Under the pieces are notes generated by a model. The model worked only from the letters and a program-made list of their open reading frames with translations, made no database searches and was not told where the DNA came from. Positions 12,373 through 52,237 of a DNA stretch of 64,000 nucleotides are shown here, in pieces. Made by a program: the position numbers and the translations under genes. Positions within the stretch are counted from its first letter, which is position 1; every line of letters starts with the position of its first letter. Source of the stretch: an uncultured delta proteobacterium (lineage in GTDB: Bacteria > Myxococcota > UBA727 > VGSZ01); the NCBI GenBank assembly GCA_963775425.1, contig CAVZJB010000009.1, positions 272,616 through 336,615 of the forward strand, written 5' to 3'.

Positions 12373-12635
12373 GCGGCCAGCGTAGCCCGCCTCCGCCGCG
12401 GACGACGAGCGCTTCCGGCACGGGATCGTCTCGAGTCACGACGTCTGTGCGCGCCCACGCGAGCGCGCCGGCGTCCGCACCGCGCGCGCCATGTTCGTGC
12501 CGTGACCGTGCGAGGGCACCTGGCCCCGTTCGCCGCGCTGCTCCTGTGCGGCTGCCCGCTCGACGTGTCCCTGCAGGGGAAGCCGTGCGACGCCGGCCAC
12601 GCCTGCGCCGGCGGCTTCCGCCTGGCGCCGTAGGG

Positions 12636-14304
<1,669 letters not shown>

Positions 14305-27000: not shown

Positions 27001-27687
27001 TCGCCGGCCGGCGGCATGGCGCGCAGCTCGTCCTCGAGGGAGCGCAGCGCGCGCGCCTCCTCCTTGCTGCGCTCGTGGGCCTGCACGGAGAGCGTCGAGT
27101 ACAGATCCGTGCCCGTGATCTTTTCGAGGAGCGCCGCGCGGTCGTCGGCGCGCGCCTTCAAGAAGCTCGCGAAGCCGCCCTGGGCGAGCAGCACCGAGCG
27201 GCAGCACTCGTCGAAGGTGAGGCCGAGGCGGGCGCGGATGTGCTCGAGCGTGTCCTCCTTGCCGTCGCCGGCGCGCTCGCCGGTGACGACGTCATGAAGC
27301 GTGAGCACCTCTTCCTGCAGGCGGCCGAAGGCCTGGCCGCGGGCGCGCCGCACCGTCCAGCGCGCGCGCCACACGCGCCCGTCGACGCCGCTGAAGTCCA
27401 CCTCGGCGAACGCGGTGGCGGCCATCCGGCGCACGAGGCTCTTGGGATCGTTGGCGCGCAGCGACGCGCCGTCCTTCTTGAGCGGAGATCCGCCGCGCCC
27501 CGACAGCCGCGGCGTGCGGTTGAAGAGCGCGAGGCACATCGCGTCGAGGAGCGTGGACTTGCCCGAGCCGACGGGGCCGGCGATGGCGAACAGGCCGAGG
27601 TGGCACAGCGGCGGCTGCGCGAGAATCGACGGCGAAGCCGCCCTTGAGCGACGCGAGGTTGGCGCCGCGGATGGCGAGGATCCTCAC
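24057..27687 (-). pseudogene. sbcC: SbcC-type exonuclease ATPase subunit, N-terminus displaced by a +1 frameshift (or a sequence error)
   Basis: The GTG start overlaps the sbcD stop (GTGA). It reads VRILAIRGANLASLKGGFAVD, the frame breaks at 27622-27627, and it continues LAQPPLCHLGLFAIAGPVGSGKSTLLDAMCLALFNRTPRL (Walker A). A very long Ala/Arg/Glu coiled coil follows, with a CPLCGS zinc hook. C-terminal motifs: LSGGETFLVSLSLALGLS and LFIDEGF. Confidence 0.85.
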
Positions 27688-33802: not shown

Positions 33803-34126
33803 TCACGAGCCGCGGTAGGTGGAGTAGCCGAAGGGCGACAGCAGGAGCGGCACGTGGAAGTGCTGGGCTGCGTCCTTCACCACGAACGTGATCTGGGCGT
33901 GGGGATAGAACGTGTCCTGCCCGCTCTTTGCGTAGTGCGCGCCGACATCGAACGTCAGGCGGTGCGTCCCGGCGCCGACCTCGGCGAACGTCTTCACGCG
34001 GCCGTCGTCGTCGGTGACGGCGCTCTGCCTGTCCCCGAGCGTTGCGCCGCTCTCCAGCGTGACGGCGACGCCGGCGGCGGGCTGGCCGCGCGAGATGTCG
34101 AGGACGTGGGTGGTGATGCGGGCCAT
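33803..34126 (-). CDS. uraH: 5-hydroxyisourate hydrolase (transthyretin-like)
   Basis: MARITTHVLDISRGQPAAGVAV...HFHVPLLLSPFGYSTYRGS (the C-terminal YSTYRGS signature). The longer track ORF is a spurious extension. Confidence 0.85.
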   Translation of the reverse strand: MARITTHVLDISRGQPAAGVAVTLESGATLGDRQSAVTDDDGRVKTFAEVGAGTHRLTFDVGAHYAKSGQDTFYPHAQITFVVKDAAQHFHVPLLLSPFGYSTYRGS

Positions 34127-34247
34127 GCGTCGTCTCCGGTCCGTGGTGATGGTGCCGACAAGAGTGCCTCGACGGGACGATAGCGCGCCGGCAAGCTCGA
34201 GCGGACGGTCCGGCGTCGCGCGCGTCCCCCTCGTTGGCCTCGAGGCG

Positions 34248-35163
34248 ATGCGAGGCGCGTGCGCCGCACCCTGCGTGCTCAAGCAGCGCACCGCGCTCAT
34301 CGGCGTGGCCGCCTGGTGCATCGCCGCGTGGTGCGGGTGCGACCGCCCCGCGCACGGGGGCGCCTGCAACGAGGACTCGGATTGCGCGGGCGCCTCCTGC
34401 GTCCTCGGCGCGTGCGTGGTCCCGGCCGTGGTGTGCGGAGACGGCAAGCTCGACGCGGGCGAGCAGTGCGACGACGGCGCGCGCGCAGCCGGTGACGGCT
34501 GCGACGCCCGCTGCCTGATCGAGGCGGGCTGGGACTGCGGCGGCGCGCCGAGCGTCTGCCAGCGCTGTGGCGACGGGGTGCAACAGGGCACCGAGGCGTG
34601 CGACGACGGCGGGCTCGCGCCCGGCGACGGCTGCACCGCGGCGTGCTCCGTCGAGAGCGGCTACGCCTGCGCCGGCGCGCCGAGCGCGTGCGCCCCGGTG
34701 TGCGACGACGGCACGGCGACGCCGGCGACGGCTGCGACGAGAGCTGCGCGGTCGAGACGGGCTTTGCCTGCGACGACGGCGAGCCCTCGACGTGCATGGC
34801 CGTCTGTGGCGACGGGCTCGTGCGCGGCGCCGAGGGCTGCGACGACGCCAACGCCGCCGCCGGCTGCGACGCCGGCTGCACCCCGACCGTCGGCTTCGCG
34901 TGCGACGCCTCCGAGCCGTCGGTCTGCCGGACCTTGCAACGGGCGCGACCGCCTTGCACGGCGTCGACGCGAGCGAGCTTGTGCTCACGCCGACGGGCGC
35001 AACGCGATCCCCCCTCCCCGCGGTGGTCGCCGCCGCCGGTGCGCACGAGAGCCCTCCACACCGCTGCGAAGTCGCCACAGCGACACCGCTCCCAATTCCG
35101 TTTCGACTATTCCGCTATGCGGATCACTTCTCTAGGCGAGCCTGGCCAACCGAAGCGCGGTGA
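34248..35163 (+). pseudogene. Myxococcus-type cysteine-rich repeat (CGDG...CDDGN..GDGC) secreted protein, broken by at least two single-base deletions; 3' end unresolved
   Basis: Signal-like start MRGACAAPCVLKQRTALIGVAAWCIAAWCGC. Repeats: CGDGKLDAGEQCDDGARAAGDGCDARC and CGDGVQQGTEACDDGGLAPGDGCTAAC. After CDDG (about 34713) the motif continues one frame over: GDAGDGCDESCAVETGFAC...CGDGLVRGAEGCDD. A second shift lies near 34927. Only 34248 to about 34930 is supported by motifs. Confidence 0.55.
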
Positions 35164-36652
35164 TCCTCTTCTGCTCCTCGGCCGCGTTCTTGATCTCGGC
35201 GTCGCGGTCGTTCTTCACGCGCTCCTCGAGGATGGCGAGCATCTCCGCCGCCGACTTCCCCGACGCCATCACGATGAAGATGAAGCCGTGCTTGGCGAAA
35301 TACGCGTCGTTTTGCGCGGCGAGGCGCGCCTTGACGTCGTCGACGGCGCCGCCGACGGCGCGCTGCTCGTCGTCGGACCACGCGCGGGACGCTGCCGTCG
35401 CTGCCGCGGCCGCTCCGCCGCCGATGCGCGGGTGCGCCGCGAAAGCCTCGAGCCAGTCGTCGGTGACGAGGGCGTTGAACGCGGCGCGCACCGACTCGTC
35501 CAAGGCGCTCGGCGCGAGGAACGGCCGCGCCGCCAGCATCTTCTTCGCCCACGTGCATGAGCCGCAGCAGGAGAGGAACGCCGCCTCCGCCTCGGCGGGC
35601 GGCATGGCGTTCAGGCGCTTGACGCGCAGGGCCGCGCGCTCGTCGTCGTCGACGCGGGCGAACACGCGGAAGCGCGCGACGCCGCCGTCGGGGTGGACGC
35701 GGAGGCGAACGTGCGACACCGCCGGTTGCGCGCCCGACAAGGGGAACACGTGCCGCGTGTGCGGCCGCAGTTGCGTGCGCGGGAACAGCTCGCGCCACTC
35801 GCCGTCTGCGGAGCTGCCGGCGTCGACCGCGAAGCTCTCGGGGCAGTTGCCCTTGAAGTGCGACGTGTCGACGACGAGCCGCGTGGGCGTCGACCGCGCG
35901 CCGAGCTTCACGACGGCCCAGTCGTAGCCCGCGCGGCGCGCGCGGCGGGTCTCCCACCCGTCGTGCATGCCGCCGCTGTGCCCGGGGAAGAGCAGGTTGT
36001 GGCGGGAGCCGAAGAACATGTCGCTGCAGGCGAGGACGACGCCACCGAGCTCGGCGCCGGACACCTCGAGCTCGCCGTCGAGGCCGCCGTGGAGACGGAA
36101 GTCGGGCAGGGGCTCGCCGTACACACGCAGCCGCGCGACGCCGCCGTCGGGGAAGATGCGCAGGCGCACGTGGGTGAAGCGGTACGGCGACGACACCGCG
36201 AAGTCGTTCTTGGCGTTGCCGAGGAGGGGCGAGCGCGGCAACAGCGGGAACCACTCCGCGTGCTTGGCGATCTCTTGCGCGCTCGGGTAGCCGTCCACGC
36301 TCGTGCCCTCGAGCGCGCAGTGCGACGGGAAGTTGCCGCGGAAGAACGCGGTGTCGACGACGACGCCGCGGATGACGCCCGGTGCCCCGAGCCGCACCAC
36401 GCAGAAGTCCTCGTGCCACTCACCGTCGCGCGCGCCGCTGTTCTCGCGGTGGCTGCGCCGGCTCTCCCAGCCGTCCATCCACTTGCCGCGGTCGGTGTAC
36501 GCGTCCTCGTCCCAGACGGGCTCCTTGGCCTTCACGAGGTTTTCCATGCCGGCGAAGAAGTCGTCGCTGCACACCACGGCGGCGCCGCCGAGCCGCTCGT
36601 TGGCCAGGTCGACGAGGTCCTCGAACGAAGCGATGGCGTGCGTCGTCGTCAT
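35132..36652 (-). CDS. Bifunctional allantoicase / OHCU decarboxylase fusion
   Basis: The N-terminal 330 aa or so contain two allantoicase repeats (SDDFFAGMENL...GKWMDGWESRR and SDMFFGSRHNL...HDGWETRR). The C-terminal 165 aa or so form an OHCU decarboxylase (FLSCCGSCTWAKKMLAARPF...AAHPRIGG...YFAKHGFIFIV). Confidence 0.8.
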   Translation of the reverse strand: MTTTHAIASFEDLVDLANERLGGAAVVCSDDFFAGMENLVKAKEPVWDEDAYTDRGKWMDGWESRRSHRENSGARDGEWHEDFCVVRLGAPGVIRGVVVDTAFFRGNFPSHCALEGTSVDGYPSAQEIAKHAEWFPLLPRSPLLGNAKNDFAVSSPYRFTHVRLRIFPDGGVARLRVYGEPLPDFRLHGGLDGELEVSGAELGGVVLACSDMFFGSRHNLLFPGHSGGMHDGWETRRARRAGYDWAVVKLGARSTPTRLVVDTSHFKGNCPESFAVDAGSSADGEWRELFPRTQLRPHTRHVFPLSGAQPAVSHVRLRVHPDGGVARFRVFARVDDDERAALRVKRLNAMPPAEAEAAFLSCCGSCTWAKKMLAARPFLAPSALDESVRAAFNALVTDDWLEAFAAHPRIGGGAAAAATAASRAWSDDEQRAVGGAVDDVKARLAAQNDAYFAKHGFIFIVMASGKSAAEMLAILEERVKNDRDAEIKNAAEEQKRITALRLARLA

Positions 36653-36709
36653 GGCCGGGTTGTCGGCCGCGCCGGGGGAAATGACAAGGCACTATCGCGT
36701 GCGGACGGG

Positions 36710-38164
36710 TCAACCGCGGCCGAGGATCAGCCGGCCGTCGCGCGCGGTGACGTCGTCGCCGCGGCGAAAGACCTGTTGCCCGCGCAGCCACGTGGAGCGC
36801 ACCACGCCGAACAGCTCGCGGCCGTGGTACGGCGTGAGCTTGTTCTTGTGCGCGAGCTTCTCCTGGTCGACGACGAAGGTCGCGTCGGGGTCGATGACGG
36901 CGAAGTCGGCGTCCTTGCCCTTGGCGATGCTCCCCTTGCGAGAGAGCCCCGCGAGGAGCGCGGGCTCTTCGCTCATCCAGCGCGCCACGTCGACGAGCGT
37001 CCGTCCGCGGGCGCGCGCGCCGGTCCACGTGGCGGGCAGCGTGAGCTGGAGCGAGGAGATGCCGCCCCACGCGGCGTCGAAGTCGCCGCGCTCGACCTGC
37101 TTGAGAGCGACGGTGCACGGCGAGTGGTCGCTGACCACGCTGTCGAGGACGCCGCGGGCGAGCGCGTCCCAGAGGGCGTCCTGGTTTTCGCGCTCGCGGA
37201 TGGGCGGCGTGCACTTGAACCAGGTGGCGCCGTCGTCGATCTCCTCGGCGCAAAACGACAGGTAGTGCGGGCAGGTCTCGACGGTGAGCGGCAGGCCGTC
37301 GTCGCGCGCGTCCTCCAGCAGGGCCAGGGCCTCCGACGACGAGTGATGCACGATGTGCACGGGCCCACCGCGGGCGCGACACATGCGGACCATGAGCTCG
37401 ACGGCGGCGTTCTCCGACGCCTTGGGCCGGCTCTCGAGGTGGAAGCGATAGCTCCGCCGCGACAAGGCGCCGGAGGCGAGGGCGGCCTCGAGCGCGTGCG
37501 CGGCCTCGTCGATGGGCCCCTGCAATTCGGCGTGGGCGAGCAACGGGGCGCGCGCGTCCCGCAGGATCCCGAGGGAGCGATCCAGGTCCGCCTCGGAGAC
37601 GTTCTTGAACTCGGGGACGCCCGAGTCGATGAGGAAGCACTTGAAGCCGAGCACGCCGCGCTCGACCAGCGGGACCAGGTCCTCGTGGTTCCCCGGCACC
37701 ACGCCGCCCCAGAAGCCGACGTCGACGGCGAGCTGGTTCTTGGCGGCGTCGAGCTTGTCCTCGAACGCGGCGACGCTCGTGGTGGGCGGCAGGGAATTGA
37801 GCGGCATGTCGACGAGGGTGGTGACGCCGCCGCGCGAGGCCGCTTGCGTGGCGGTGGCGAACCCCTCCCACGCCGTGCGCCCGGGCTCGTTCACGTGCAC
37901 GTGGCTGTCGACGAGGCCGGGCATCACGAGCGAATCGAGGAAGTCCACGACGTCGACGCCGACGGGCACGCGGCCGCGCTCAACGACGTCTACGATCGCG
38001 CCGCCGTCGTCGACGAGCACCGCCGCCGGCCGCACGGCGCCGCCGGTGACCACGCGCGTCGACGTGAACGCCCGCGCGATCCCCCCGGCGGGCGCGCCGC
38101 CGCGCCACGCCGAGCGACCCTCGTCGTGGCGTGGGGGCTTGTTGTCGCTCGCCCCCGTCGTCAC
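36710..38164 (-). CDS. allB: Allantoinase (cyclic amidohydrolase)
   Basis: Motifs: PGLVDSHVHVNEPGRTAWEGF, GFKCFL, VHIVHHSS, VSDHSPC. The GTG start at 38164 lies in a GTGA overlap with the upstream stop. A later internal start is also possible, because the N-terminal 35 aa or so are not conserved-looking. Confidence 0.85.
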   Translation of the reverse strand: MTTGASDNKPPRHDEGRSAWRGGAPAGGIARAFTSTRVVTGGAVRPAAVLVDDGGAIVDVVERGRVPVGVDVVDFLDSLVMPGLVDSHVHVNEPGRTAWEGFATATQAASRGGVTTLVDMPLNSLPPTTSVAAFEDKLDAAKNQLAVDVGFWGGVVPGNHEDLVPLVERGVLGFKCFLIDSGVPEFKNVSEADLDRSLGILRDARAPLLAHAELQGPIDEAAHALEAALASGALSRRSYRFHLESRPKASENAAVELMVRMCRARGGPVHIVHHSSSEALALLEDARDDGLPLTVETCPHYLSFCAEEIDDGATWFKCTPPIRERENQDALWDALARGVLDSVVSDHSPCTVALKQVERGDFDAAWGGISSLQLTLPATWTGARARGRTLVDVARWMSEEPALLAGLSRKGSIAKGKDADFAVIDPDATFVVDQEKLAHKNKLTPYHGRELFGVVRSTWLRGQQVFRRGDDVTARDGRLILGRG

Positions 38165-39807
38165 GGCGCCCCCGCGGCCGCGGGGCCGAAGGCGAAGTCG
38201 GCGGTGACCTCGCCGCCGGCGGGCACCGTCACGTGCACCGTCTTCTTGCCGCCGGCGTCGCTCCACGCGGTGAGCTCGACGTCGCCGGCGGGGACGCCGT
38301 CGAGGACGAAGGCCCCGTCGTCCTTGGTGACGGCGAACCACGGGTCGTCGACGACGCCGATGTGGTTGATCATCCACGGGTGGATGTCGCAGCGCGTCTC
38401 CACCATCAGCTCGGGCGCACGGAACACCTTGGTGTCCCGCTGCCCCTGCGCGGGCTGGTTGATGCTGAAGGTGTCGTTGTTTTGCGCCACCGAGCGGATG
38501 TTGTGAAAGACCGGGTCGGTGTTCACGAAGGTGACGGGCTGTCCCACGCGCACGCCGCTCACGCGCGGCTGGTAGAGGCACCCCTTCTGCTCGACGGTGA
38601 CCTCGCCCTGCGGCGCGGGGATGGCGTACTTGTCGACGCCGCCGGTGACGGCGACGAACGCCTCCGCGAGCTTTCCGTCATGAACGACCGCGGCGGGGAT
38701 GGACAGCGGCCCGTCGTGGCCGGCCTCACAGCCGCCGTAGAGCGCCACCTCGCGTGGCGCGGGGACGTCCCCCTGCCATGTGACGCTGCCGCGGATGCGG
38801 CCGGTGGCCGTGATGGGCGTGCCCGTCTTGGCTGCGTTCACGACGGGCGCGGCGCGGTCGTGGTCCGAGGCCAGCGTGCCCGCGACGGACGCGACGATGG
38901 TGACGACGACGAGCGTGCCGAGGAAGCCGAGCATGACCGTGGCCGGCGGGTCCACCTTGTTCATCCACCACTTCACGCCGGCGCCGGCGCAGCAGACCAC
39001 GACGAGGATCACCCAGTTCCACCCGATGGTGGTGCCGGCCACGTGGGCGGCGGCGCCGTAGGTGAACGGGAAGTGGTTGGAGATCATGATGAAGATGACC
39101 GGGTAGGTCATGTAGTGGTTGTGCTTGCTGCGGCGCTTGGCCGAGTACGCCTTGGCCGCGTCGGGCTCCTTGCCCGTCTTCACGCTCTCGACGAGGTTTC
39201 GCTGCGCCGGGATGATGCGCATCCAGACGTTGGCCACCATGCACGTGCCCATCACCGCCGCGGTGTGGATGTACGCCGCGCGGCCCGACAGGAGGTGCGT
39301 GAACGCGAAGGCGATGGCCGCGAGGCCGATGACCGAGATGGCCACCGTGAGCGGCGGGTTCTGCGACGCGGCGCCGGCGAGCCGGGAGGACCACAGGAGG
39401 TCGTAGGCGACCCAAGCGACGACGAGCGTGCCCATGCAGATGGCGGTGGCCACCTGATGCGAGACCACCGGGTGAGCGGCGTCGACGAGGAGGACGCCGC
39501 CGCCGAGGTGGTAGAGCACGATGAGGAGGAAGAAGCCGGTCATCCAGGTGAACGCGGCCTCCCACTTGAACCAGTGAAGCGTCGACGGCAGCGCGCTCGG
39601 CGCCACCAGCTTCTTTTCGACCTCGTAGAAGCCGCCGGAGTGCACCATCCACAGGACTCCCTCGAGCCCCTCCCGCTTCTCCTTGGGCTTCTCCATGTGG
39701 CTGTCGAGCCAATGGAAGAAGATGGACGAGCCGATCCACATGATGCCGGCGATGAGGTGCGCCCAACGCAGGACGAGGTTCAAGCCTTCACTGACGAGCG
39801 GATTCAT
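38161..39807 (-). CDS. puuD: Membrane urate hydroxylase (PuuD-type N-terminal domain) fused to a cupredoxin-like domain and a carboxypeptidase-regulatory-like domain
   Basis: The N-terminus LNLVLRWAHLIAGIMWIGSSIFFHWL plus about 8 TM helices match the PuuD/urate-oxidase-N family. The C-terminus has type-1 copper ligand spacing (VFHNIRS ... CDIHPWM = C-x2-H-x2-M). No CxxCH haem motif anywhere. Confidence 0.75.
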   Translation of the reverse strand: MNPLVSEGLNLVLRWAHLIAGIMWIGSSIFFHWLDSHMEKPKEKREGLEGVLWMVHSGGFYEVEKKLVAPSALPSTLHWFKWEAAFTWMTGFFLLIVLYHLGGGVLLVDAAHPVVSHQVATAICMGTLVVAWVAYDLLWSSRLAGAASQNPPLTVAISVIGLAAIAFAFTHLLSGRAAYIHTAAVMGTCMVANVWMRIIPAQRNLVESVKTGKEPDAAKAYSAKRRSKHNHYMTYPVIFIMISNHFPFTYGAAAHVAGTTIGWNWVILVVVCCAGAGVKWWMNKVDPPATVMLGFLGTLVVVTIVASVAGTLASDHDRAAPVVNAAKTGTPITATGRIRGSVTWQGDVPAPREVALYGGCEAGHDGPLSIPAAVVHDGKLAEAFVAVTGGVDKYAIPAPQGEVTVEQKGCLYQPRVSGVRVGQPVTFVNTDPVFHNIRSVAQNNDTFSINQPAQGQRDTKVFRAPELMVETRCDIHPWMINHIGVVDDPWFAVTKDDGAFVLDGVPAGDVELTAWSDAGGKKTVHVTVPAGGEVTADFAFGPAAAGAP

Positions 39808-40372
39808 CGACGATCTCTTTCGCGCTGAAGGTGTTGTCTGCCCAGGTATGCACGGGCACGCGGCGCGCGTCGAGGAGCGCGGTGCGCACCGGGTGGGCGA
39901 TGGCGCCGTCGGCGCCCGCGACGCCGTAGACGTTGAAGAGCGACGCGAACGCCTCCACCACGTCGGGCGCGCCCGTGGCGAGGGTGAACCCCGCGTCGCC
40001 GGCGACCGCGAAGCGCGCCGCGTACGCGCGCAGCGCCGCCGGCGTGTCCCGCGCCGGATCGAGCGTGACGACGAGGACGCGGGCGCCGTCGCGGCGTGCC
40101 TCGGCGAGCTTCTTCATGGTGAGCGGACACATGGTCTCGACGGGGCAGTGCGTATAGACAAAGCCCACGGCGACGGGCCCGGCGACGTCACCAAGCTCGA
40201 ACGCTTGCCCGTCCTGGTCGACGAGCGGAAACGACGGCACCGGTTGTCCGGGCCGCCACGCGGCGACGTCGGCGCGCCAGGCGTCGTGGCTGCGACAGGA
40301 CGTGAGCGCGAGCGCGGCGCCGAGGAGCGCGGCGCACACCGTCGGCCACGAGGCACGTTCGTCAGGGCGCAC
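39788..40372 (-). CDS. SCO1/SenC-family copper chaperone (thioredoxin fold), probable lipoprotein
   Basis: Motifs: LALTSC lipobox and VGFVYTHCPVETMCP (the CxxxCP copper site). The start is uncertain (GTG 40372 chosen; the track ORF starts at 40495). It overlaps the puuD start by 20 nt. Confidence 0.7.
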   Translation of the reverse strand: MRPDERASWPTVCAALLGAALALTSCRSHDAWRADVAAWRPGQPVPSFPLVDQDGQAFELGDVAGPVAVGFVYTHCPVETMCPLTMKKLAEARRDGARVLVVTLDPARDTPAALRAYAARFAVAGDAGFTLATGAPDVVEAFASLFNVYGVAGADGAIAHPVRTALLDARRVPVHTWADNTFSAKEIVDESARQ

Positions 40373-40560
40373 CTGGGGGCCAATAGCGGCGATGACGGCG
40401 GGTGCCAACGGCGGGGGCGCGCGGCGCCGTGAGGTCGGAGGCAACACGAGCGCGCCCACGCTGTGACGGTAGCGCGCCCGAGCGGGCGTGGGCATTGACG
40501 GTCCGTCCGGCGGGAAGGAAACGGGCTGATGATCCTCTGCACGCCTTCCCCGGTCGGCCC

Positions 40561-41922
40561 ATGAGCAACACGTCGCTGCCCCCCACGTTCCTCGCCGAGA
40601 CCACCGCGCGCCTGCGGGCCGCCAACGAGCCCGTCACCCGTCGCTTCGTCGGCGAGAGCGCCTCACGCCAGCCGGTGCACACGGTCTACGGCGGGGCGCA
40701 GCTCTTCAAGAAGGACGCGGCGTGGAAGCTCGGCCGCGGCGCGCTCAAGGCGCTCGACGAGTACGCGCCCTCGGCGGACGTGTTCGCGCGCGCCGCGGGC
40801 ATCCGCGCCGACGTCGCCGGCGTCGTGTACGAGCGCGTGCGCGAGAAGCTCGTGCGCGAGCCCGTCGAGGACATGCGCATCGACTTCGAGGACGGCTACG
40901 GCAACCGCCCCGACGACGAAGAAGACGCCGAGGCGGTGCGCTGCGCGCACGAGGTGGCCGCCGGCATGAAGGATCCGCGCGCGCCGGGCAGCGGGCTGCC
41001 GCCGTTCATCGGCATTCGCATCAAGACCTTCTCGGACGAGCTGTTCGCGCGCGCGGTGCGCACCCTCGACCTTTTCGTGAGCGCGCTCGTCAAAGACACC
41101 GGCGGTAAGCTGCCGGACGGCTTCGTCATCACGCAGCCGAAGATCACCACGGCCGAGCACGTCGCCGTCCTCGCCGACGTCCTCGAAGCGCTGGAGGAGC
41201 GCCTCGGCCTGTCGTCGGGGGCGTTGCAGCTCGAGGTGATGATCGAGGCGACGCAGTCCATCCTGGACATCGACGGCAGGATCGCCCTGCCCAGGATCCT
41301 CGACGCCGCGCGCGGCCGCTGCGTGGCCGCGCACTTCGGGACCTACGACTACACCGCGTCCAACAACATCACCGCCGCGTACCAGTCCATGGAGCACGCG
41401 GTCTGCGACTTCGCCCGCACCTTCATGTTGCAGGCGTACGCGGGCACGGGCGTGTGGCTCAGCGACGGAGCCACCAACGTGATGCCGGTGCCGGTGCACC
41501 GCGCGGCCGACGGCCACGCGCTCACCGCCGCGCAGGTCGCCGAGAACGTGTCGGTGGTGCACGCGGCGTGGGCGCTGCACGTGCGCCACATCCGCCACTC
41601 GCTGGAAAACGGCTACTACCAGGGCTGGGACCTCCACCCCGCGCAGCTCCCCACGCGCTACGGCGCGCTCTACGCGTTCTTCCTCGAGGCGCTCCCCGCG
41701 GCGAGCGAGCGCCTGAAGAACTTCGTGCAGAAGGCCGCGCAGGCCACGCTCGTGGGCGACGTCTTCGACGACGCCGCCACGGGCCAGGGCCTGTTGAACT
41801 TCTTCCTGCGCGGCATCAACTGCGGCGCCCTCAAGGAGGACGAGGCCCTCGCCACGGGCCTCACCCTCGACGAGCTGCGCGGCCGCAGCTTCGTCAAGAT
41901 CTTGAAGAACCGTCGGGGTTGA
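40561..41922 (+). CDS. HpcH/CitE-like (aldolase / citrate-lyase beta superfamily) TIM-barrel protein
   Basis: Start MSNTSLPP. Motifs: RIDFEDGYG (compare the DLEDAV motif of CitE), FIGIRIKTF, LQLEVMIEATQSI, HFGTYDY. The assignment is at superfamily level only. Confidence 0.55.
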   Translation: MSNTSLPPTFLAETTARLRAANEPVTRRFVGESASRQPVHTVYGGAQLFKKDAAWKLGRGALKALDEYAPSADVFARAAGIRADVAGVVYERVREKLVREPVEDMRIDFEDGYGNRPDDEEDAEAVRCAHEVAAGMKDPRAPGSGLPPFIGIRIKTFSDELFARAVRTLDLFVSALVKDTGGKLPDGFVITQPKITTAEHVAVLADVLEALEERLGLSSGALQLEVMIEATQSILDIDGRIALPRILDAARGRCVAAHFGTYDYTASNNITAAYQSMEHAVCDFARTFMLQAYAGTGVWLSDGATNVMPVPVHRAADGHALTAAQVAENVSVVHAAWALHVRHIRHSLENGYYQGWDLHPAQLPTRYGALYAFFLEALPAASERLKNFVQKAAQATLVGDVFDDAATGQGLLNFFLRGINCGALKEDEALATGLTLDELRGRSFVKILKNRRG

Positions 41923-41932
41923 AGGCAGCGGC

Positions 41933-42943
41933 ATGCCCGTCGCCAATCCGGTCCAGTTCGCCGTGGTGCGCGAGGATCCCGTCGTCGAGCTCTCGCTCCT
42001 CGCGGACGTCCGGCGCGGCGCTTCGACCGCGGCGCTGCTCATCGCCTCGGGCGGCTGCACGGCGCTCACGGTCGCGGCGGCGCGCCCCGACGTGGCGCTC
42101 ACGCTGCTCGATGCGAACCCCGCCCAGCTCGCCCTCGTCGAGCGAAAGCGCGCCGCGCTCGCCGCGCACGCGCCGGGGTCGGCCGCGCGGCGGCGCACCT
42201 TCGGCGTCGACGCGGACGACGCGGCGTCCCTGTCGGGGTGCGGCAACTTCGAGTCGCTGTTTCGCGGGCTGCGCGCCGTGCTCGATGACCTGGTGATGCC
42301 GGCGGCCGAGCGGCGCGCGCTCCTCGCGGGCGACGGCGGCGCGGGCGCGCTCACCGGCAACAGGTACTGGCCGGTGGCGTTCGAGATGTTCTTCTCCGAC
42401 GCCATGCTCGAGGCCATGTTCGGGCCCGAGGCCACGCAGCACGCGGACAAGGGCTCGTACCCGGCGTACTTCCGCCGCGTCGTCGAGCGCGCCCTCGCCG
42501 GCGGCGCGGGGGGAGCGCCGGCGCGCGCGAACCCGTATCTTCACCACGTGTTGCTCGGCCACTACCTCGACGGCGCTCTGCCGGCGTTCCTGGAGCGCAT
42601 GACATGCGCGCAGGCGGAGGGCGCGCGCTTCAATCTCGTCGAGGGGAGCGTGACGCGGGGGCCGTCCTTCTCGGCGTTCGACCTCGTGTCGCTGTCGAAC
42701 CTCTTCGACTGGATGAGCGACGACGACGTGGCCGCGACGTGCGCGCGCCTCGCCGCCGAGTCCAAGCCCGGCGCCGTCGTGGTCTTGCGCCAGCTCAACA
42801 ACCGCGCTCCGGTCGAGCGCTTCTTCGGCGACGCGTTCCGCTTCGACGACGCACGCGCCGCGGCGCTCCTCGCCCGCGACCGCAGCATGTTCTACGAGCG
42901 CCTCGTGGTCGGCACGCGGGTCGCCGGCGGGGGTGGCGCATGA
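41933..42943 (+). CDS. BtaA-like (DUF3419-type) class I SAM-dependent enzyme
   Basis: Motifs: FAVVREDP, LLIASGGCTALT, LLDANPAQLALVE, YWPVAFEMFFSD, NPYLHHVLLGHY, SLSNLFDWMSDDD. It starts 10 nt after the upstream stop. Confidence 0.55.
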   Translation: MPVANPVQFAVVREDPVVELSLLADVRRGASTAALLIASGGCTALTVAAARPDVALTLLDANPAQLALVERKRAALAAHAPGSAARRRTFGVDADDAASLSGCGNFESLFRGLRAVLDDLVMPAAERRALLAGDGGAGALTGNRYWPVAFEMFFSDAMLEAMFGPEATQHADKGSYPAYFRRVVERALAGGAGGAPARANPYLHHVLLGHYLDGALPAFLERMTCAQAEGARFNLVEGSVTRGPSFSAFDLVSLSNLFDWMSDDDVAATCARLAAESKPGAVVVLRQLNNRAPVERFFGDAFRFDDARAAALLARDRSMFYERLVVGTRVAGGGGA

Positions 42944-43689
42944 GCGCGGCGGCGCCCCCGGAGAGCGCGGGTCGCTCGGCTGCCTCGCCGGAGCTCGTGC
43001 GGCTCATCGACGACGTGCTCGCCGACGTCGACTACGCCGAGAACCCCTACTTCACCGCGCTGCGCGACGGGAGCTTTTCGCGCGAGGACTTCCTCGAGAC
43101 GCAGCTCCAATTCCACGCGGCGGTGACGTTCTTCTCGCGGCCCATGGCGGCGCTGGCGGCCAAGATCCCGTCCGCGGAGCTGCGCGTGGAGATCGTGCGC
43201 AACGTGTGGGAGGAGCACGGCGAGGGCGATCCCGCGCGCATGCACGGCGCCACCTTCGTCGAGCTCCTGGCGCGCCTCACCGGCGGCGCCGCCGACGAGG
43301 TGCGGCGGGAGATCGAGCGCCGCCCCCTCTGGCCGGAGGTGCGCGCGTTCAACACCCTCCTCGCCGGCGTCTGCGTGCTCGACGAGTACCTCGTGGGCGT
43401 CGGCTGTATGGGCATCGTCGAGCGGATGTTCGCCGAGATCTCCGGCTGGATCGGAAACGCCATCGTCGCCCGCGGGTTCCTGCCCGCCGACCGGATGATC
43501 CACTACAGCCTTCACGAGTCCCTCGACGTCAAGCACGCGTCCGACTTCTTCGCCGTGCTCGACGCCGCCTGGGGCGCCGCCGACGAGCGCTACCGCATCG
43601 AGCAAGGCCTGCGCATGGGCGCCATCGCGTTCGACCAGCTCTACGCGCGCCTGTACCGCTGCCGCGACCGCCGCTGGGTGCGCCCGTGA
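42940..43689 (+). CDS. Heme-oxygenase-like diiron (iron-containing redox enzyme family) protein
   Basis: ATGA overlap with the upstream stop. Motifs: NPYFTALRDGSFSREDFLETQLQFHAAVTFF, VWEEHGEGDPARMHGATF, HESLDVKHA (helical E/H-rich ligand pattern). Confidence 0.6.
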   Translation: MSAAAPPESAGRSAASPELVRLIDDVLADVDYAENPYFTALRDGSFSREDFLETQLQFHAAVTFFSRPMAALAAKIPSAELRVEIVRNVWEEHGEGDPARMHGATFVELLARLTGGAADEVRREIERRPLWPEVRAFNTLLAGVCVLDEYLVGVGCMGIVERMFAEISGWIGNAIVARGFLPADRMIHYSLHESLDVKHASDFFAVLDAAWGAADERYRIEQGLRMGAIAFDQLYARLYRCRDRRWVRP

Positions 43690-44846
43690 CGCGCCCGCGT
43701 CGTCGACCGCGCGCGGGGCGCCCGCCCACGGGCCGGTGGGCCGCCGCGCCCGTCACCGCCCTCGTCCTCGCCGTCACCGGCGCGCTCGCGGGCTGCCCCG
43801 CGCCGGCGAGCGAGGATCCGTTCGAGCTCGTCATCGCCGCCAAGAAGGCGGCCGCCGACGTGCGCGCCGACGGCGCCCGCGTCGCCTACACCGACGGCCT
43901 GGAGGCGAGCAGCGACGGCCAGGGGGTCGGGGTCGACGTCGTCGTCGCCGAGCGCGGCGAGGAGATCCTGCGCGCGCCGGCCGACGTCGCCGTGCGCGGG
44001 ATGGCGCTCGGCAAGACCTCCGTGGCCACGCTCGAGCTCGCCGAGGCCGCCGCCGTCAATCAGCACGTGGTCATCCGTCCCCTCGACGGCGGCGACGCCA
44101 TCGATGTCCCTCGCACGGACGCGCCCCTCGCCCTCGCCGCCGTCGACGACGGCGCCGGCTACCTCTGGATCGAAGCGCGCCTCGACGGCACCGACGACAC
44201 CGGCGGCGGCGTCGACGGCCTCTATGTGCTCACGCTCGTCGAGGCCGGCGAGGACGGTGTGGTGACCAGGCGCACGCCCTTCGACGCCGGAGAGATCCGC
44301 GCCCCCGCCGCCGTCCTCGAGCTGTTCCCGCGCCCCTTCGGCGTGCTCGTCGCCGGTGACGACGTCTACTTCGGCTGGGACTCCGACCTCTGCCGCGGCG
44401 GCTCCGTGCTCTACCGCGTGAGCCGCGCCGACGGCCACGGCGTCGCGGAGTGGCGCGGGCGCGTCGCCGCCGTCGGCCCCGTCGACGGCACGACGTGCGA
44501 GTGCGACACCACCGTCGCCGACAACGTCACGGACCGCGGCCAGGCCGTCGCGCTGGACGCGGGGACACCGGTGGTGGTGGGCGGTGTCTTCGACTGCGCC
44601 TCCGTGAGCGCGGAGCGCGGCTTCGTGCGTGACGGCGAGGACAGCGCCGAGGTCGAAGACGCGCTCCGCTTCGCGGGCTTCTCGTCGAGCGGCGTCACGG
44701 CCACCACGCCCACGGGAGTGGTGAAGCTCGTCGGCGTCGGCGAGGGCGCCGTCGTGAACGCCCACTCGCGCGTGACCGGCCTCGCGGTGGACGGCGGCGA
44801 CGTGTTCTTCAGCCTCGAGGACGGCGTCTACCGCCTCACGCCGTGA
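43686..44846 (+). CDS. Probable lipoprotein, unknown function
   Basis: GTG start in a GTGA overlap. Signal peptide WAAAPVTALVLAVTGALAGC. The remainder is beta-rich. No family recognised. Confidence 0.55.
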   Translation: MTRPRRRPRAGRPPTGRWAAAPVTALVLAVTGALAGCPAPASEDPFELVIAAKKAAADVRADGARVAYTDGLEASSDGQGVGVDVVVAERGEEILRAPADVAVRGMALGKTSVATLELAEAAAVNQHVVIRPLDGGDAIDVPRTDAPLALAAVDDGAGYLWIEARLDGTDDTGGGVDGLYVLTLVEAGEDGVVTRRTPFDAGEIRAPAAVLELFPRPFGVLVAGDDVYFGWDSDLCRGGSVLYRVSRADGHGVAEWRGRVAAVGPVDGTTCECDTTVADNVTDRGQAVALDAGTPVVVGGVFDCASVSAERGFVRDGEDSAEVEDALRFAGFSSSGVTATTPTGVVKLVGVGEGAVVNAHSRVTGLAVDGGDVFFSLEDGVYRLTP

Positions 44847-44906: not shown

Positions 44907-45707
44907 ATGCGCTTCTTCAAGATCACCCGCGAGATCCTGCCGCGCTGGCAGGAGAAGCTCGAGGCGCTCGAGCAACTGAGCGTCTATCCCCTCGGCGCCG
45001 ACGCCTTTCGCCTCACGCACGGCGCGGACTACTTCGCGTTCTTCGAGCGCATGGGCGAGGTCCACTACTACGCGATCGAGGAGGGCGGCGCGCTCGCCGC
45101 GGTCGCTTGCGGCGTGTTGCGGCCGGCGTCGGTGCGGGCGCCGCGTCGCTGGTACGCCGCGGACCTGAAGGTGCACCCGGCCTTTCGTGGGAGACACCTG
45201 CCGATCACGCTGCTCCGCCGCGCGTTCCTCCAAAACTGGCTCCGCTGCGGGCGCGGGTACGCGGTGGCGATGGACCCGTCCGACGGGCGCGTGCCTCCGG
45301 GGGTGCGGCTGATGGCGCACTTCAAGTGGATCCCGATGTCATTGATGGCGCTCGCCAAGATCGACGTCTACGCCGCCGACGAGCACGGGATGAAGCGCGC
45401 CGCGCCGCTCATCGCGCGTGGAGGCGTGCGGCCTCGATACGTATCGCTCGCAGGGGTCAAGGACCTCGTGCTCGAGAGCTCCAAGGCGCCGCTCGATCTT
45501 CTTCACGTGTCGTTTGCGCCCACCGGCGACGACCGGGTCTACGAGGCGCCGCAACGCGGGGCCACGCACATGTGGTGCGTGCCACGTGAGCACGCGCTGG
45601 CCGGCGCGCTCGCCGCCGAGGGCTTCACGCCCACGGCGAGCGCGACGCTCTTGCACCACCGGCTCGCGCGTATGGATTGGGCGACGCTCGAGACCTGCGA
45701 GATCTGA
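44907..45707 (+). CDS. Hypothetical protein, possibly GNAT-like acyltransferase
   Basis: 266-aa ORF. YAADLKVHPAFRGRHLPITLLRRAF resembles the GNAT acyl-CoA-binding motif. The assignment is weak. Confidence 0.45.
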   Translation: MRFFKITREILPRWQEKLEALEQLSVYPLGADAFRLTHGADYFAFFERMGEVHYYAIEEGGALAAVACGVLRPASVRAPRRWYAADLKVHPAFRGRHLPITLLRRAFLQNWLRCGRGYAVAMDPSDGRVPPGVRLMAHFKWIPMSLMALAKIDVYAADEHGMKRAAPLIARGGVRPRYVSLAGVKDLVLESSKAPLDLLHVSFAPTGDDRVYEAPQRGATHMWCVPREHALAGALAAEGFTPTASATLLHHRLARMDWATLETCEI

Positions 45708-45709
45708 AC

Positions 45710-47662
45710 GTGTGCGGCATCGTCGCCGTCCTGCGCCTCGGCGAGCGTCCGCTGCCCGGGGACGACGCGGTACGCGCGATGACCCGAGCCATCGCTCACC
45801 GCGGCCCCGACGGCGAAGGCTTCCATCGCGACGACGACGTCGCGCTCGGCGTGGTGCGGCTGGCGGTCGTCGACGTCGGGCACGGGCGGCAGCCGGCGCG
45901 CGGCTGCCGCGGCGCCGGGCCCGTGTCCGTCGTGAACGGCGAGCTCTACGAGCACCGCCCGCTGCGCGCGGAGCTCGCCGCGCGGCACGAGATCGTCGAC
46001 GCGTGCGACGCCACGCTGCTGCCGCATTTGTACGAGGACCACGGCGCCAACATGGTGCTGCACATGCACGGCATGTTCGCCTTTGCGCTGTGGGACCGGC
46101 GCGAGCGCACGCTGCTCCTCGGCCGCGACCGCCTCGGCATCAAACCGCTCTTCTTCGCCGTCACGCCCGACTTCCTCGTTGCTGCGTCGGAGGCAAAGGC
46201 GATCTTCGCCTCCGGCCTCGTCCAGCCGCGCATCGATCGCGACGCCGTCGACGACCTCTTCTCCCTGGGGTACCCGTGCCCGCCGCGCACGATGTTCGCC
46301 GGCGTCACTGCGGTGCCCCCGGGGCACACGGTGACGGCTCGCGCGGGCGGCGGCGCACAGCGAGGCCGCGTCGACGCCGCTCGCCGCTACTGGCGCGCGC
46401 CGCTGTCTCCGCCGGCGCACACCGGCCAACGAGGGTCGCCCGCGGGGTCGGCCGCCGACGTCCACGACGCCCTCGCCGCCGCCTTGCGCACGCACCTCGA
46501 CGCCGACGTCCCCGTGGCCACGTGGCTGTCCGGAGGGCTCGACTCGTCCGCGGTCTCGGCGCTCGCGCGCGAGGCCGCCGGCGCGCCGCTCCCCGCGTTC
46601 GCGCTCACGTTCCCGGGAGACCCCGAGGGGCTCGACGAGAGCGCACCCGCGCGCGCCGTCGCCCGCTTCCTCGGCGCGGACCTGGACGAGGTGCCCATGG
46701 GAGCTCCGGCGGCTTCGTTGCTCGAGCGCATGACGTGGCACCTCGAGCTCCCGCTCCTCGTCCCCGGCGCGCTCGGCGGCCTCCTGCTCTCCGAGCGGCA
46801 GCGCGCGCGAGGCTTCAAGGTCACGCTCACCGGCGACGGTGCCGATGAGGTGCTCGGCGGCTACGACGTGTTTCGCGCGAGCCGCGCGCGCCGGCTCCTC
46901 GGGGCGCGCGCGTTCTCCGCCGCCGTCGTCGCGGGCGACGCGCTCGGCCTCCTCTCGCCGCGCGGCATCGGTGCGTTCCTCGCGCAAAACGCCCGCGCGC
47001 CACGGACGGACATCGTCGCCCGCGCGTACGGCGGCGTGCGCCCACCCTGGCTCGAGCAGTGGGCGCTCCTCGACGTCGAGCGCGCGGCGCTCCTGTCGCC
47101 CGACGGCAGGCGCGTGCGCCCGATCGAAGAGGCGCCCGCGGGCTTCGCCGCTTTGGTGCGCGAGGACGCCGTCGCGCTCGATCCGCTCGACGCCGAGATC
47201 GCGCTGGAGCTGGAGACGCGCCTGCCCGCGTGGATCCTGGTCATCGGTGATCGCTCATCGATGGCCCACGGGGTCGAGGCCCGCTTGCCGTTCCTCGACG
47301 ACGACGTCGTGCGCACGCTCCTCGCCGTCCGGCCGGCGCTGAAGATGCGCGGGATGCGCGAGAAGGCCGTGCTGCGCGACGCCGTCGCGGGGCTGCTGCC
47401 GCGCGCCATCGTGCGGCGCAGGAAGCAGCCGTTCATGACGCCGATCGCGCCGTGGTTCTTCCCGCCGGGAGCTACGCCGCCCGCCCTGACGCGCGCGCGG
47501 CTCGAGGACGCCGGGCTGTTCGACGCCGCCGTCGTCGCGCGGCTCCTCACGCGTCTGCACACCTCGCGCCCCGGGACGCTCGAGCGCGTCCGGCTGGAGA
47601 TGGTGCTGATGCTCGTCCTCGGGACGCAGCTCCTGCACGCGTCTTTCGTGGCCAGGGCTTAG
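45710..47662 (+). CDS. Asparagine synthetase B-like glutamine amidotransferase / adenylating enzyme
   Basis: The GTG-TGC start gives the N-terminal nucleophile (M)CGIVAV. Motifs: GELYEH, RDRLGIKPLFF, SGGLDSS (PP-loop), LTGDGADEVLGGY. It starts 2 nt after the upstream stop. Confidence 0.85.
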   Translation: MCGIVAVLRLGERPLPGDDAVRAMTRAIAHRGPDGEGFHRDDDVALGVVRLAVVDVGHGRQPARGCRGAGPVSVVNGELYEHRPLRAELAARHEIVDACDATLLPHLYEDHGANMVLHMHGMFAFALWDRRERTLLLGRDRLGIKPLFFAVTPDFLVAASEAKAIFASGLVQPRIDRDAVDDLFSLGYPCPPRTMFAGVTAVPPGHTVTARAGGGAQRGRVDAARRYWRAPLSPPAHTGQRGSPAGSAADVHDALAAALRTHLDADVPVATWLSGGLDSSAVSALAREAAGAPLPAFALTFPGDPEGLDESAPARAVARFLGADLDEVPMGAPAASLLERMTWHLELPLLVPGALGGLLLSERQRARGFKVTLTGDGADEVLGGYDVFRASRARRLLGARAFSAAVVAGDALGLLSPRGIGAFLAQNARAPRTDIVARAYGGVRPPWLEQWALLDVERAALLSPDGRRVRPIEEAPAGFAALVREDAVALDPLDAEIALELETRLPAWILVIGDRSSMAHGVEARLPFLDDDVVRTLLAVRPALKMRGMREKAVLRDAVAGLLPRAIVRRRKQPFMTPIAPWFFPPGATPPALTRARLEDAGLFDAAVVARLLTRLHTSRPGTLERVRLEMVLMLVLGTQLLHASFVARA

Positions 47663-47828
47663 GGCCCCCGAATGAACAACTCGATCGCCCTCGCGGCCGA
47701 TCCATCGCCGCTGGCTTCGTTGCTCGTCGGTCACGTGGCGACGGCCACGCTCCCTCCTCGCGCCTCGCCATCGGCGCGCCTCGACCGCGATCATCGACCG
47801 ACTTGTTCATTCGAGGGCCCTTAGCCCT
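47654..47828. repeat. 175-bp element bounded by 34-bp imperfect inverted repeats, located exactly between two convergent stop codons
   Basis: Left arm 47654-47687: agggcttagggcccccgaatgaacaactcgatcg. The reverse complement of 47795-47828 is agggctaagggccctcgaatgaacaagtcggtcg (30/34 identical). The asnB-like stop (47660-62) lies inside the left arm. The NRPS stop (47829-31) abuts the right arm. Confidence 0.6.
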
Positions 47829-50800
47829 CTAGATCGCGTCGGCCGCGCCGACGTCGGCCTGCGGGGCGGCGGCGAGGGAGCGCGGACGCGCGGGGCGCTT
47901 GTCGACGACCTCGTCGATGAGGCCCGTGATGCACGTGGCCATGCGCTCGATGTTCTCGCTCCGAAACAGCTCGAGGTGCGAGCCCTTCACCGTGACGACG
48001 TCGATGCGACCCTTGACCCAGCGGCGCCAGCCGTTGGTGGGATCGTCCATGCGCGTGGCCGGCCAGCGGAAGGGATGCTCGGCGACAAAGAGCAGGAGCG
48101 GCGCCGTCTCTCCGTTCTGTTTGGGCATGTACGCGAGCTGGGCCTGCGTGAGGATGGCCCAGATCTGCTTCATGCGATCTTCGCGCTCACGGTCGGCGCC
48201 GTCGACGGCGGGCGCGAGCAGCTCGCCGAGGCCGAGCTTGAAGAGCAAGCGGCGGCGCACGTTGTCGATGCGATCCTTCACGTAGTTGAAGCGGCCCAAG
48301 GCGTCACGCCTGCGCAGCTCCTCGACATGCGCGAGCGCGCGCTCCATGCGCGGAAGCTTCTCGGGATAGCCGGGCGCGAAGGCGTCGAACGCGACGATGG
48401 CGCCGACGTTCTTCCCGCGCCGGCGCAGCCGGTGCGCGAGCTCGTAGGCGACCATGGCCCCGAAGCTGTAGCCGCCGACGACGAGCTGCTGCCCCGACAG
48501 CCCGCGCGCGTCGAGCTCGCGCTCGTAGGCCGCGGCGATCTCCTCGACCGACTCGCGTGGCAGGTCTTCGCCGTCGGCGCCGATGGCGGTGAAGGCGTAG
48601 ACGGGTTGATCGGGCCCGAGCCGCTGCGCGAGCTCGCGAAAGATGAACACCTGGCCGCCCGCGCCGGACACGATGAGCAGCGGCGGGCGCGTCCCGTGCG
48701 CGTTCAACACGACGAGGTGGCTCTGCGGCTCGGACGTCGCGCGCTCGCCGTCGCCGAGGCTCTGCGCGAGCGCGGCGATGGTGGGCTTCGCCAGGATGCG
48801 CGACAGCGGGACGTTGATGCCCAGCTCCTTCTTCAGCCGCGACACCACCACGACCGCGAGCAGCGAGTGGCCGCCCATGTCGTCGAAGAAGTCGTCGTGA
48901 ACACCCACCGGCGCGCGCAAGACGTCGCTCCACAGGGCGACGAGCTTCTCCTCGAGCGGGGTGCGCGGTGGGGACAGCGCGCGCCGCTCGAGGACGAGCG
49001 CCGGATCAGGGAGCGCCGCGCGGTCGAGCTTGCCGTTGGAGGTGACCGGCAGGCGGTCGAGCCGCACCAGGGCCGAAGGCACCATGAAGTCCGGCAGCGC
49101 CGCAGCCACCGCCGCCTTCAACGACGGCGCGTCGAAGGGCTGCGCCGCATGGAGCGGCACGACGTACGCCACCACGGCCTTCGCGCCGGAGGCGTCGGGG
49201 CGCGCGACGCACACGACGTCGCGCACGCCGGGCTGCTTGCGCAGCACGGCTTCGATCTCGCCGAGCTCGACGCGGAAGCCGCGCACCTTCACCTGGAAGT
49301 CGGCGCGCCCGAGGAACTCCATGGTGCCGTCGTCCCAGAAGCGCGCGAGGTCGCCCGTCTTGTAGATGCGCTCGCCCGGGAGGAACGGATCGGGGAGGAA
49401 CCGCTCGGCGGTGAGCTCCTCGCGGTTGAGGTAGCCGTCGGCGAGGCAGAGGCCGCCGATGTAGAGGTCGCCGGCGATGCCGGTGGGCGCCGGGCGCATG
49501 TGGCGATCGAGGATGTAGTAGCGGGCGTTGTCGATGGGACGGCCGTAGGGGATGGAGCGCCACGACGGGTCTACGTGGCCGATGCGGTGGAAGTTCGACC
49601 AGATGGCGGCCTCGGTGGCGCCGCCGAACGACACGGGTTCCACACCCTCGAACACCTCGCGCAGGTGGTCGGGCAGCTTGACCGGGATCCAGTCGCCGGA
49701 CATGAGCGCGAGCCGCAGCGTCGACGACGGCGCGCGCGCCGGAAAGAACGGCGCGAGCCGCGCCAGCGCCGGCGGCGCGGAGTCCCAGATGGTGATGCCG
49801 GGCGCGGTGAGCTTCTTCACCAGGAGCTCCGGCTCGCGCAGCGTCTCCACCGAAGCGATCTCGACGACGGCGCCGGCGCCGAGCGCGCCGAAGACGTCGT
49901 AGACGGACAGGTCGAAGCTCGGGGACGTGACGAACAAGAGCTTGTCGCGCGGGCCGACGCTGAAGGTGCGGTTCACCCACTGCAGCGTGTTCGTCACCGC
50001 GCGGTGCGTGAGCACCACGCCCTTGGGCCTGCCGGTGCTGCCCGACGTGTAGATGGCGTAGCTCACGTCCCTCGAGGCGGCGACGCGCGCGGGCCGGGTG
50101 TCGGGAGCGCCCTGCACGTCCGCGCCGTCGACGCCCAGGATGGGGATGCCCGGCGGCGGCGCGCCGTCGCCGTGGCCCCACGGCAGCGACGACGACGTCA
50201 CCACCGCCACCGCTCGCGCGTCTTCGACCATGAAGCGCGCGCGCTCTTCGGGGTAGCCCGGGTCCACGGGCACATATGCCGCACCGGACTTGGCGATGCC
50301 GATCATCGTGGTGACGAGGTCGAAGTTGCGGTCGAGCAGGAACGCCACGTATTGGCCGGGCTTCACCCCGCGGGCGCGCAGCGCGTGGGCGAGGCGGTTG
50401 GCGCGCCGCTCCACCTCGGCGAAGGTGAGCGTCTCTCCCTCGAATTCCAGGGCGACGTCGTCAGGCCGCGCGTCCACCTGCTCCTCGAAGAGCGTGTGGA
50501 TGAGGATCTCGTCTGAAAACGGCGCGGCCGTGTCGTTCCAGCCGAAGACCTGCCGCTTGCGGGTCTCGTCGTCGAGGAGGTCGACGCGCGCGAGGGGCTT
50601 TTCGGGATCCGCCGCGACCTGCGCGCACACCGCGGAGATCTGCTCCACCAGCGCGCGCACGCGGGGCGTGTCGACCGCGCCTTCGTCGACGACGAGCGAC
50701 GCCTGTCCGCCGCTCAGGCGCAGCGCCAGGACCGCGCCCGGCGGGAGGGCCTCGCCGTCGTCGAGCAGGACGGCCACGCACGACAGCGCGCTCGTCTGGA

Positions 50801-52202: not shown

Positions 52203-52237
52203 GTCGTCGGATTATCACGACCTGCGGCGCCCGCGCA

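Follow-up and report, generated by a model that had tools for sequence, protein, structure and literature searches.

Heme-oxygenase-like diiron oxidases/oxygenases (HDOs) form a family of more than 10,000 members, of which about a dozen were functionally validated at the time of a 2026 review, and most are defined by a 3-His/3-carboxylate set of metal ligands on core helices 1–3 (PMC13108848). DUF3419, a family of S-adenosylmethionine (SAM) enzymes, has BtaA as its sole characterised enzyme (PMC10491745), and btaA pairs in an operon with btaB, which encodes an N-methyltransferase, in the synthesis of betaine lipids (PMC6302742). Genes of both families stand next to each other in the DNA analysed here, a 64,000-nt stretch of contig CAVZJB010000009.1 from an uncultured delta proteobacterium (hereafter the window). 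The original prediction, made from the letters of the window, had joined these two genes with a preceding lyase-like gene into a three-gene cassette. We consider it probable, at roughly 0.8, that the region holds two independent modules side by side: the lyase-like gene g1, a member of DUF6986, which goes with urate catabolism (module A), and a cassette of g2, g3 and g5 (module B) with the chemistry proposed below.

Six genes, g1 to g6, lie close together on the plus strand from 40.5 to 47.7 kb. The window has ~72% G+C, so coding frames in this region were picked by third-position G+C, which reaches 0.95–0.97 in the open reading frames (ORFs) of g1 to g4, a strong coding signature. The stop codon of g1 (TGA, 41920–41922) is separated by the 10-nt spacer AGGCAGCGGC from the ATG of g2 at 41933; the end of g2 and the start of g3 have the ATGA at 42940–42943 in common, and the end of g3 and the start of g4 the GTGA at 43686–43689. 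These three junctions read exactly as had been claimed. The close packing continues past g4 through g5 and g6, with a gap of 60 nt between g4 and g5 and of 2 nt between g5 and g6, which starts with GTG at 45710. Profile searches also upheld the three superfamily assignments made earlier, with g1 in DUF6986 (CitE/malate-synthase-like), g2 in DUF3419 and g3 among the HDOs.

A conserved g2-g3-g5 cassette

Three relatives of g2, with 49–64% identity and unrelated flanks, each lie in the same order of genes: DUF3419, HDO and an unannotated protein of ~265 amino acids. The third protein is a homologue of g5, not of g4. A scan of metagenomes with a g2 alignment added 80 further loci, which range from 26 to 73% G+C. 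In the full set of 85 g2 loci, an HDO homologous to g3 is adjacent to the g2 homologue in 56 of the 58 loci with room for it, and 41 of the 44 with enough room for g5 contain its homologue. All three genes stay together though their order varies, being g2-g5-g3 in four loci (L096-98 and L139). When all ORFs were clustered over the 29 loci that are 8 kb or longer, only the g2, g3 and g5 families recurred, found in 29, 28 and 29 loci, and the next genuine ORF family appeared in 4 of the 29. Immediate neighbours of the cassette are unrelated and of a housekeeping kind (glycyl-tRNA synthetase, SelO, a glycosidase, a Na/H exchanger and others). The true cassette is thus g2-g3-g5, self-contained and standing alone in very diverse bacteria. 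The modularity of the region is seen directly in these neighbourhoods: no homologue of g1, g4 or g6 was found by tblastn in any of the 85 g2 loci, and g4 and g6 are additions specific to this genome.

The original prediction had treated g1, g2 and g3 as a trio and had named a failure of the families to co-occur elsewhere as the result that would speak against it. For g1 this is what we found, with a DUF3419 or HDO neighbour in 0 of 80 DUF6986 loci and DUF6986 in 0 of 85 DUF3419 loci. The idea of a shared pathway of a small-molecule type holds for g2 and g3 and fails for g1, and the third member is g5, which lay outside the three genes originally grouped.

The same loci bear on what kind of pathway the cassette could encode. 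Among the 29 long loci no NRPS (nonribosomal peptide synthetase) family recurs, and neither does a conserved transporter, receptor or regulator. Rfam scans of the window region and 20 cassette loci returned no riboswitch or other RNA element. A ribosomally synthesised and post-translationally modified peptide was dropped as a reading, there being no conserved small ORF (precursor peptide) beside the cassette, and a defence system was likewise considered, for which the PADLOC models gave no match. A search with g2 of a plasmid collection gave no match. No paper describing the g2-g3-g5 cassette, or an HDO in a DUF3419 and GNAT context, was found in the searchable literature.

In some gene models (P0319, P0320), part of an HDO and a domain of the g5 type form a single protein of 487–540 amino acids. 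These joined models are weak evidence: P0319 is apparently fused or frameshifted, and may be a frameshift artefact because the C-terminus of its HDO is missing, P0320 is incomplete, and the N-terminal part of P0442 is of another kind. If genuine, the fusions in P0319 and P0320 would support a physical coupling of the HDO and g5 enzymes.

g1 and the genes of urate catabolism

The first gene of the array, g1 (40561–41922, plus strand, 453 amino acids), encodes a protein with a putative CitE/malate-synthase-like TIM barrel that matches the Pfam family DUF6986 with an E-value of 3e-180. What it shares with CitE, malyl-CoA lyase and malate synthase are weak matches to MS_TIM-barrel (26.7 bits, barely over the cutoff of 26.4) and HpcH_HpaI (22.3 bits, under the cutoff of 25). 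It differs from them in having a family of its own, no relative in a PDB sequence search, and a genomic tie to urate catabolism. DUF6986 is a large and strongly conserved family, with more than 8000 clusters at 90% identity and ~56–65% identity across phyla. The motifs DFEDG, MIE(A/T)T and GxYD are conserved in g1, and we take them to resemble the metal and substrate motifs of CitE-type enzymes.

We sampled 80 genomic loci of DUF6986 from Acidobacteriota, Myxococcota, Bdellovibrionota, Gemmatimonadota, Verrucomicrobiota, Bacteroidota and others. Within 10 kb, tblastn detected homologues of g2, g3, g4, g5 or g6 in none of the 80, and 57 of the 80 had an allantoicase/OHCU (2-oxo-4-hydroxy-4-carboxy-5-ureidoimidazoline) decarboxylase, an allantoinase or a membrane urate oxidase (Urate_ox_N) over the same distance. 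For loci of at least 15 kb, urate or allantoin genes were nearby in 30 of 41. The closest relatives of g1 are in three loci (L087-L089) with 76–84% identity to g1, and in all three the g1 relative is divergent from a urate operon containing allantoinase, allantoicase/OHCU decarboxylase and HIU (5-hydroxyisourate) hydrolase; SCO1 and urate oxidase are also in the operon in two of them. The trio membership originally given to g1 therefore does not stand, since the gene maps to a primary-metabolic urate/allantoin neighbourhood in 57 of 80 loci and in its three closest relatives.

The window has an equivalent urate-to-allantoate set on the minus strand (33812–40495), divergent from g1. It consists of HIU hydrolase (33812–34126, identified by tblastn with 61% identity) and four genes identified with Pfam: allantoicase plus OHCU decarboxylase (35132–36691), allantoinase (36710 to about 38200), the membrane urate oxidase (38161–39807) and a SCO1/SenC-like protein with a copper chaperone/thioredoxin fold (39788–40495). 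From this gene order, g1 is the divergently transcribed partner of an operon predicted to lead from urate through HIU, OHCU, allantoin and allantoate to ureidoglycolate. The CitE-like motifs of g1 (DFEDG, MIExT) and its genomic context suggest that its most likely role is to process the two-carbon end product of the urate route, via glyoxylate or ureidoglycolate-type C-C chemistry. DUF6986 may thus be an unassigned enzyme of the urate/allantoin pathway. A literature search with DUF6986, 'phosphoenolpyruvate kinase' and synonyms found no paper on module A.

The SCO1/SenC-like gene overlaps the start of the urate oxidase gene by ~20 nt, an arrangement also present in two of the three closest relatives. 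Its retention there is a hint that the urate oxidase needs copper or redox maturation.

Enzymes of the cassette and their proposed chemistry

The first cassette gene, g2 (41933–42943, plus strand), encodes a short divergent DUF3419-family SAM enzyme of 336 amino acids. It matches the Pfam profile with 75.3 bits (cutoff 28.2) in two separate stretches, the best of which covers profile positions 184–384 of 385. A fold search placed g2 among the class I SAM enzymes, with a large helical insert in the fold, and the class I SAM-binding Rossmann core is recognisable in the sequence, with a motif I of the GGC type and, following strand 2, an acidic residue. A PDB sequence search returned no match. 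With BtaA, g2 has in common its DUF3419 membership and the class I SAM-binding core, a likeness that runs through the family profile. It differs from BtaA in its shortness, in the two-part profile match, in being very divergent within DUF3419, and in its partners, which are an HDO and a GNAT protein; no BtaB-like or other fourth family recurs in the 29 long loci. By analogy, g2 would transfer either an aminocarboxypropyl or a methyl group from SAM, and the in silico evidence fits either.

In one low-G+C cassette locus (L110), the g5 homologue is followed after 42 nt by a second, fuller DUF3419 paralogue of 365 amino acids (12546–13643 of that locus, Pfam E 2e-37). The only proteins that this paralogue matches are unnamed members of DUF3419, and it has no BLASTP similarity to g2.

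The second cassette gene, g3 (42940–43689, plus strand, 249 amino acids), matches Haem_oxygenas_2 (PF14518) with 62.7 bits against a cutoff of 28.9. Inspection of the active site, as the original prediction had proposed, showed that the full 3-His/3-carboxylate ligand set is kept: E92, H102, E161, H192, D196 and H199 show no variation among 29 homologues and line up with E81, H88, E142, H174, D178 and H181 of CADD. Against the PDB, the family profile of g3 matched pABA (p-aminobenzoate) synthase/CADD (1e-9), HrmI (1e-8) and BesC (1e-7) about equally. The PF14518 domain and the complete ligands are thus shared with HDOs such as CADD, HrmI, BesC, SznF and UndA, whereas g3 stands apart in its similarly weak match to N-oxygenases and to C-C-cleaving members, and in a gene context of DUF3419 and GNAT.

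The third cassette gene, g5 (44907–45707, plus strand, 266 amino acids), encodes a tandem-GNAT-like acyltransferase. Its match to GNAT profiles is weak, and a fold search gave a GNAT/tandem-GNAT fold, with a sequence identity of ~10% to structures of tandem-GNAT acyltransferases and N-myristoyltransferase. Where the CoA pyrophosphate-binding motif Q/RxxGxG/A would lie, g5 of the window has FRGRHLP and the consensus has xRGRxLP, a degenerate and only partly canonical form. No Pfam or NCBIfam model reached threshold for the N-terminal motif YPLGxDxFxxxHGxDYFAFFxRxG. The family is small, with 927 representatives at 50% identity for E ≤ 1e-3 and 283 for E ≤ 1e-30, out of 1.84 billion proteins. Its C-terminus has the form T-x-[E/D]-I and ends at the identical position in 33 of 33 aligned members, which suggests a functional free C-terminus as in N-myristoyltransferase, an enzyme that uses a catalytic C-terminal carboxylate. 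Fold and conserved C-terminus are the two respects in which g5 and N-myristoyltransferase are alike.

We infer the chemistry of module B from these families. In the proposed scheme, g2 would alkylate an acceptor with a SAM-derived group, aminocarboxypropyl if BtaA is the guide or otherwise a plain methyl. A free amine would be N-acylated by g5 with an acyl-CoA, where the conserved C-terminus may act as in N-myristoyltransferase. The HDO g3 would activate O2 at its 3-His/3-carboxylate dimetal site and oxidise the amino-acid-like or acyl part, with N-oxygenation, desaturation and C-C cleavage as candidate reactions. We favour a product that would stay in the cell, be it a soluble metabolite or a lipid head group free of phosphorus, because no conserved transporter, regulator, precursor peptide or riboswitch accompanies the cassette.

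Competing explanations and the peptide synthetase block

The cassette could in full be a pathway to a phosphorus-free membrane lipid, in which g2 would convert diacylglycerol into a homoserine ether lipid in the manner of BtaA, g5 would N-acylate or acetylate the amine of the head group, and g3 would hydroxylate or desaturate. This is a possible reading, if a somewhat unlikely one. Known two-gene lipid cassettes such as btaAB stand alone, and the g2-g3-g5 cassette likewise has no exporter or regulator beside it. The fold and conserved C-terminus of g5 are N-myristoyltransferase-like, and genes for an acyl-CoA ligase, a PlsC-type acyltransferase or PhyH lie near the cassette in a few loci. BtaA being the sole characterised DUF3419 enzyme (PMC10491745; PMC6302742) points the same way, as does UndA, an HDO that acts on fatty acids (PMC13108848). 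Yet neither a btaB-like methyltransferase nor any lipid gene is a recurrent companion of the cassette, the lipid-related neighbours are confined to 3–4 of 29 loci, and g2, at 336 amino acids, is short and very divergent within its family.

A secreted hydroxamate or other N-oxygenated small molecule (a metallophore, signal or antimetabolite) is unlikely. Here the HDO would N-hydroxylate an amine, the GNAT protein would acylate the hydroxylamine, and g2 would build or methylate the scaffold. Pairs of an N-hydroxylase and a GNAT protein are the standard hydroxamate route, N-oxygenation is a major reaction type of HDOs, a SAM methyltransferase acts before SznF, and the best PDB matches of g3 include HrmI. 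These points are offset by the nearly equal standing of CADD, HrmI and BesC among those matches, and by a cassette that has no transporter, receptor or regulator conserved with it.

Very improbable, by comparison, is the view that g1, g2 and g3, together with g4, form one pathway whose product, a non-proteinogenic amino acid, would be taken up or altered by the neighbouring NRPS and an asparagine synthetase B (AsnB) protein. The latter is g6 (45710–47662, plus strand, 650 amino acids), an AsnB-family glutamine amidotransferase that scores 374.5 bits against TIGR01536 (cutoff 267.1) and begins MCGIV, with the catalytic Cys, from the GTG at 45710. Beyond it is a minus-strand block of genes for the NRPS, a possible ABC transporter, a 2-hydroxyacid dehydrogenase, a cytochrome-c-peroxidase-like protein and a glycosyltransferase. 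The co-directional spacing of the genes is tight (10 nt, −4, −4), the NRPS gene is convergent with g6 and ~170 nt beyond it, and HDOs are frequent in amino-acid tailoring (PMC13108848). The neighbourhood data nevertheless largely refute a single pathway, as g1 is never with g2 or g3 in 165 independent loci (80 of DUF6986 and 85 of g2), and cassette loci have no NRPS or AsnB.

The three closest relatives of g1 carry the minus-strand block directly downstream of g1, with no g2-g6 between. In two of them the NRPS is present and the cassette absent; the third has retained the block's dehydrogenase, cytochrome and glycosyltransferase genes. By comparison with these genomes, the window carries g2-g6 as an insertion that separates g1 from the NRPS block. 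The proposal that the cassette makes or modifies the substrate of the NRPS accordingly has no comparative support: the block persists in close relatives that lack g2-g6 between it and g1, which leaves the link of the trio to NRPS and AsnB unsupported, no NRPS family recurs in the long cassette loci, and a g6 homologue is present in 0 of 85 cassette loci, its tight coupling to g5 being seen only in this genome.

The other addition, g4 (43686–44846, plus strand, 386 amino acids), is a lineage-specific insertion in the cassette and encodes a predicted lipoprotein with the lipobox LAGC at its N-terminus (third-position G+C 0.95). It had no match in Pfam, NCBIfam or PADLOC, and tblastn found a homologue in 0 of the 165 loci.

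That g3 is a CADD-type self-sacrificing pABA synthase whose product the cassette tailors is scarcely credible: although 4-aminobenzoate synthases are the best PDB profile matches (E 1e-9, nearly full-length), the sacrificial Tyr27 of CADD aligns with a conserved Phe (F38) and its Lys152 with Ile, replacements that argue against such a synthase, the Tyr27Phe mutation abolishes pABA formation in CADD (PMC9522330), g3 scores 19.9 bits against TIGR04305 (cutoff 200), and the cassette has no folate gene context.

Some points weigh against two independent modules with the chemistry proposed here. In this genome g1 and g2 are on the same strand and only 10 nt apart, so they are probably co-transcribed, and a lineage-specific functional link between them is possible. 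Some NCBI records name relatives of g1 'phosphoenolpyruvate kinase', a name whose basis we could not trace and which does not fit a role in urate catabolism. The chemistry of the cassette, including the order of steps and the substrate, is put together by family analogy, and the reaction type of an HDO is not readable from its ligand set (PMC13108848).

Several features of the block and its surroundings are recorded here for completeness. The NRPS of the window (47829–52211, minus strand) is a single module with an N-terminal formyltransferase domain (formyltransferase, adenylation, peptidyl carrier protein and thioesterase domains; formyltransferase-A-PCP-TE), and its orthologue in L088 is called with a condensation domain instead (C-A-PCP-TE). 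The possible ABC transporter after the NRPS has weak similarity to the one in L088, parts of the block being conserved in the relatives. Between g6 and the NRPS gene, which converge, a 34-nt inverted repeat (arms 47654–47687 and 47795–47828, 88% complementary, with 107 nt between) spans the gap and overlaps the stop codon of g6. The repeat is unique in the window, where 0.03 chance matches are expected, and is absent from the 169 loci compared; it may form a bidirectional terminator-like hairpin or be a scar left when g2-g6 were inserted. Farther away, an SbcC-like gene (24057–27683) lies in a stretch of ~80% G+C, the highest in the window, and the long ORF on the opposite strand over it (25278–27647) is probably a compositional shadow.

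The g2-g3-g5 cassette is conserved, portable and uncharacterised, and by kind it is a small HDO-containing tailoring pathway. The locus illustrates that tight gene spacing alone does not define a pathway, and a plausible inference from operon structure is corrected here. A bolder reading, which we hold tentatively, is that the cassette is a compact, horizontally mobile pathway of three enzymes whose product would be an N-acylated, diiron-oxidised aminocarboxypropyl compound, as an undescribed metabolite derived from SAM or a lipid head group free of phosphorus, and that, separately, DUF6986 is a missing enzyme of bacterial urate/allantoin catabolism. The tie of DUF6986 to urate/allantoin catabolism in many phyla offers a lead, open to testing, on how that pathway ends. 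With three fixed genes, no accessories and a spread from 26 to 73% G+C, the cassette is a defined target for a new function that can be cloned and expressed as a unit. If the bolder reading is true, it would give a new reaction to an orphan HDO clade and a second known function to DUF3419.

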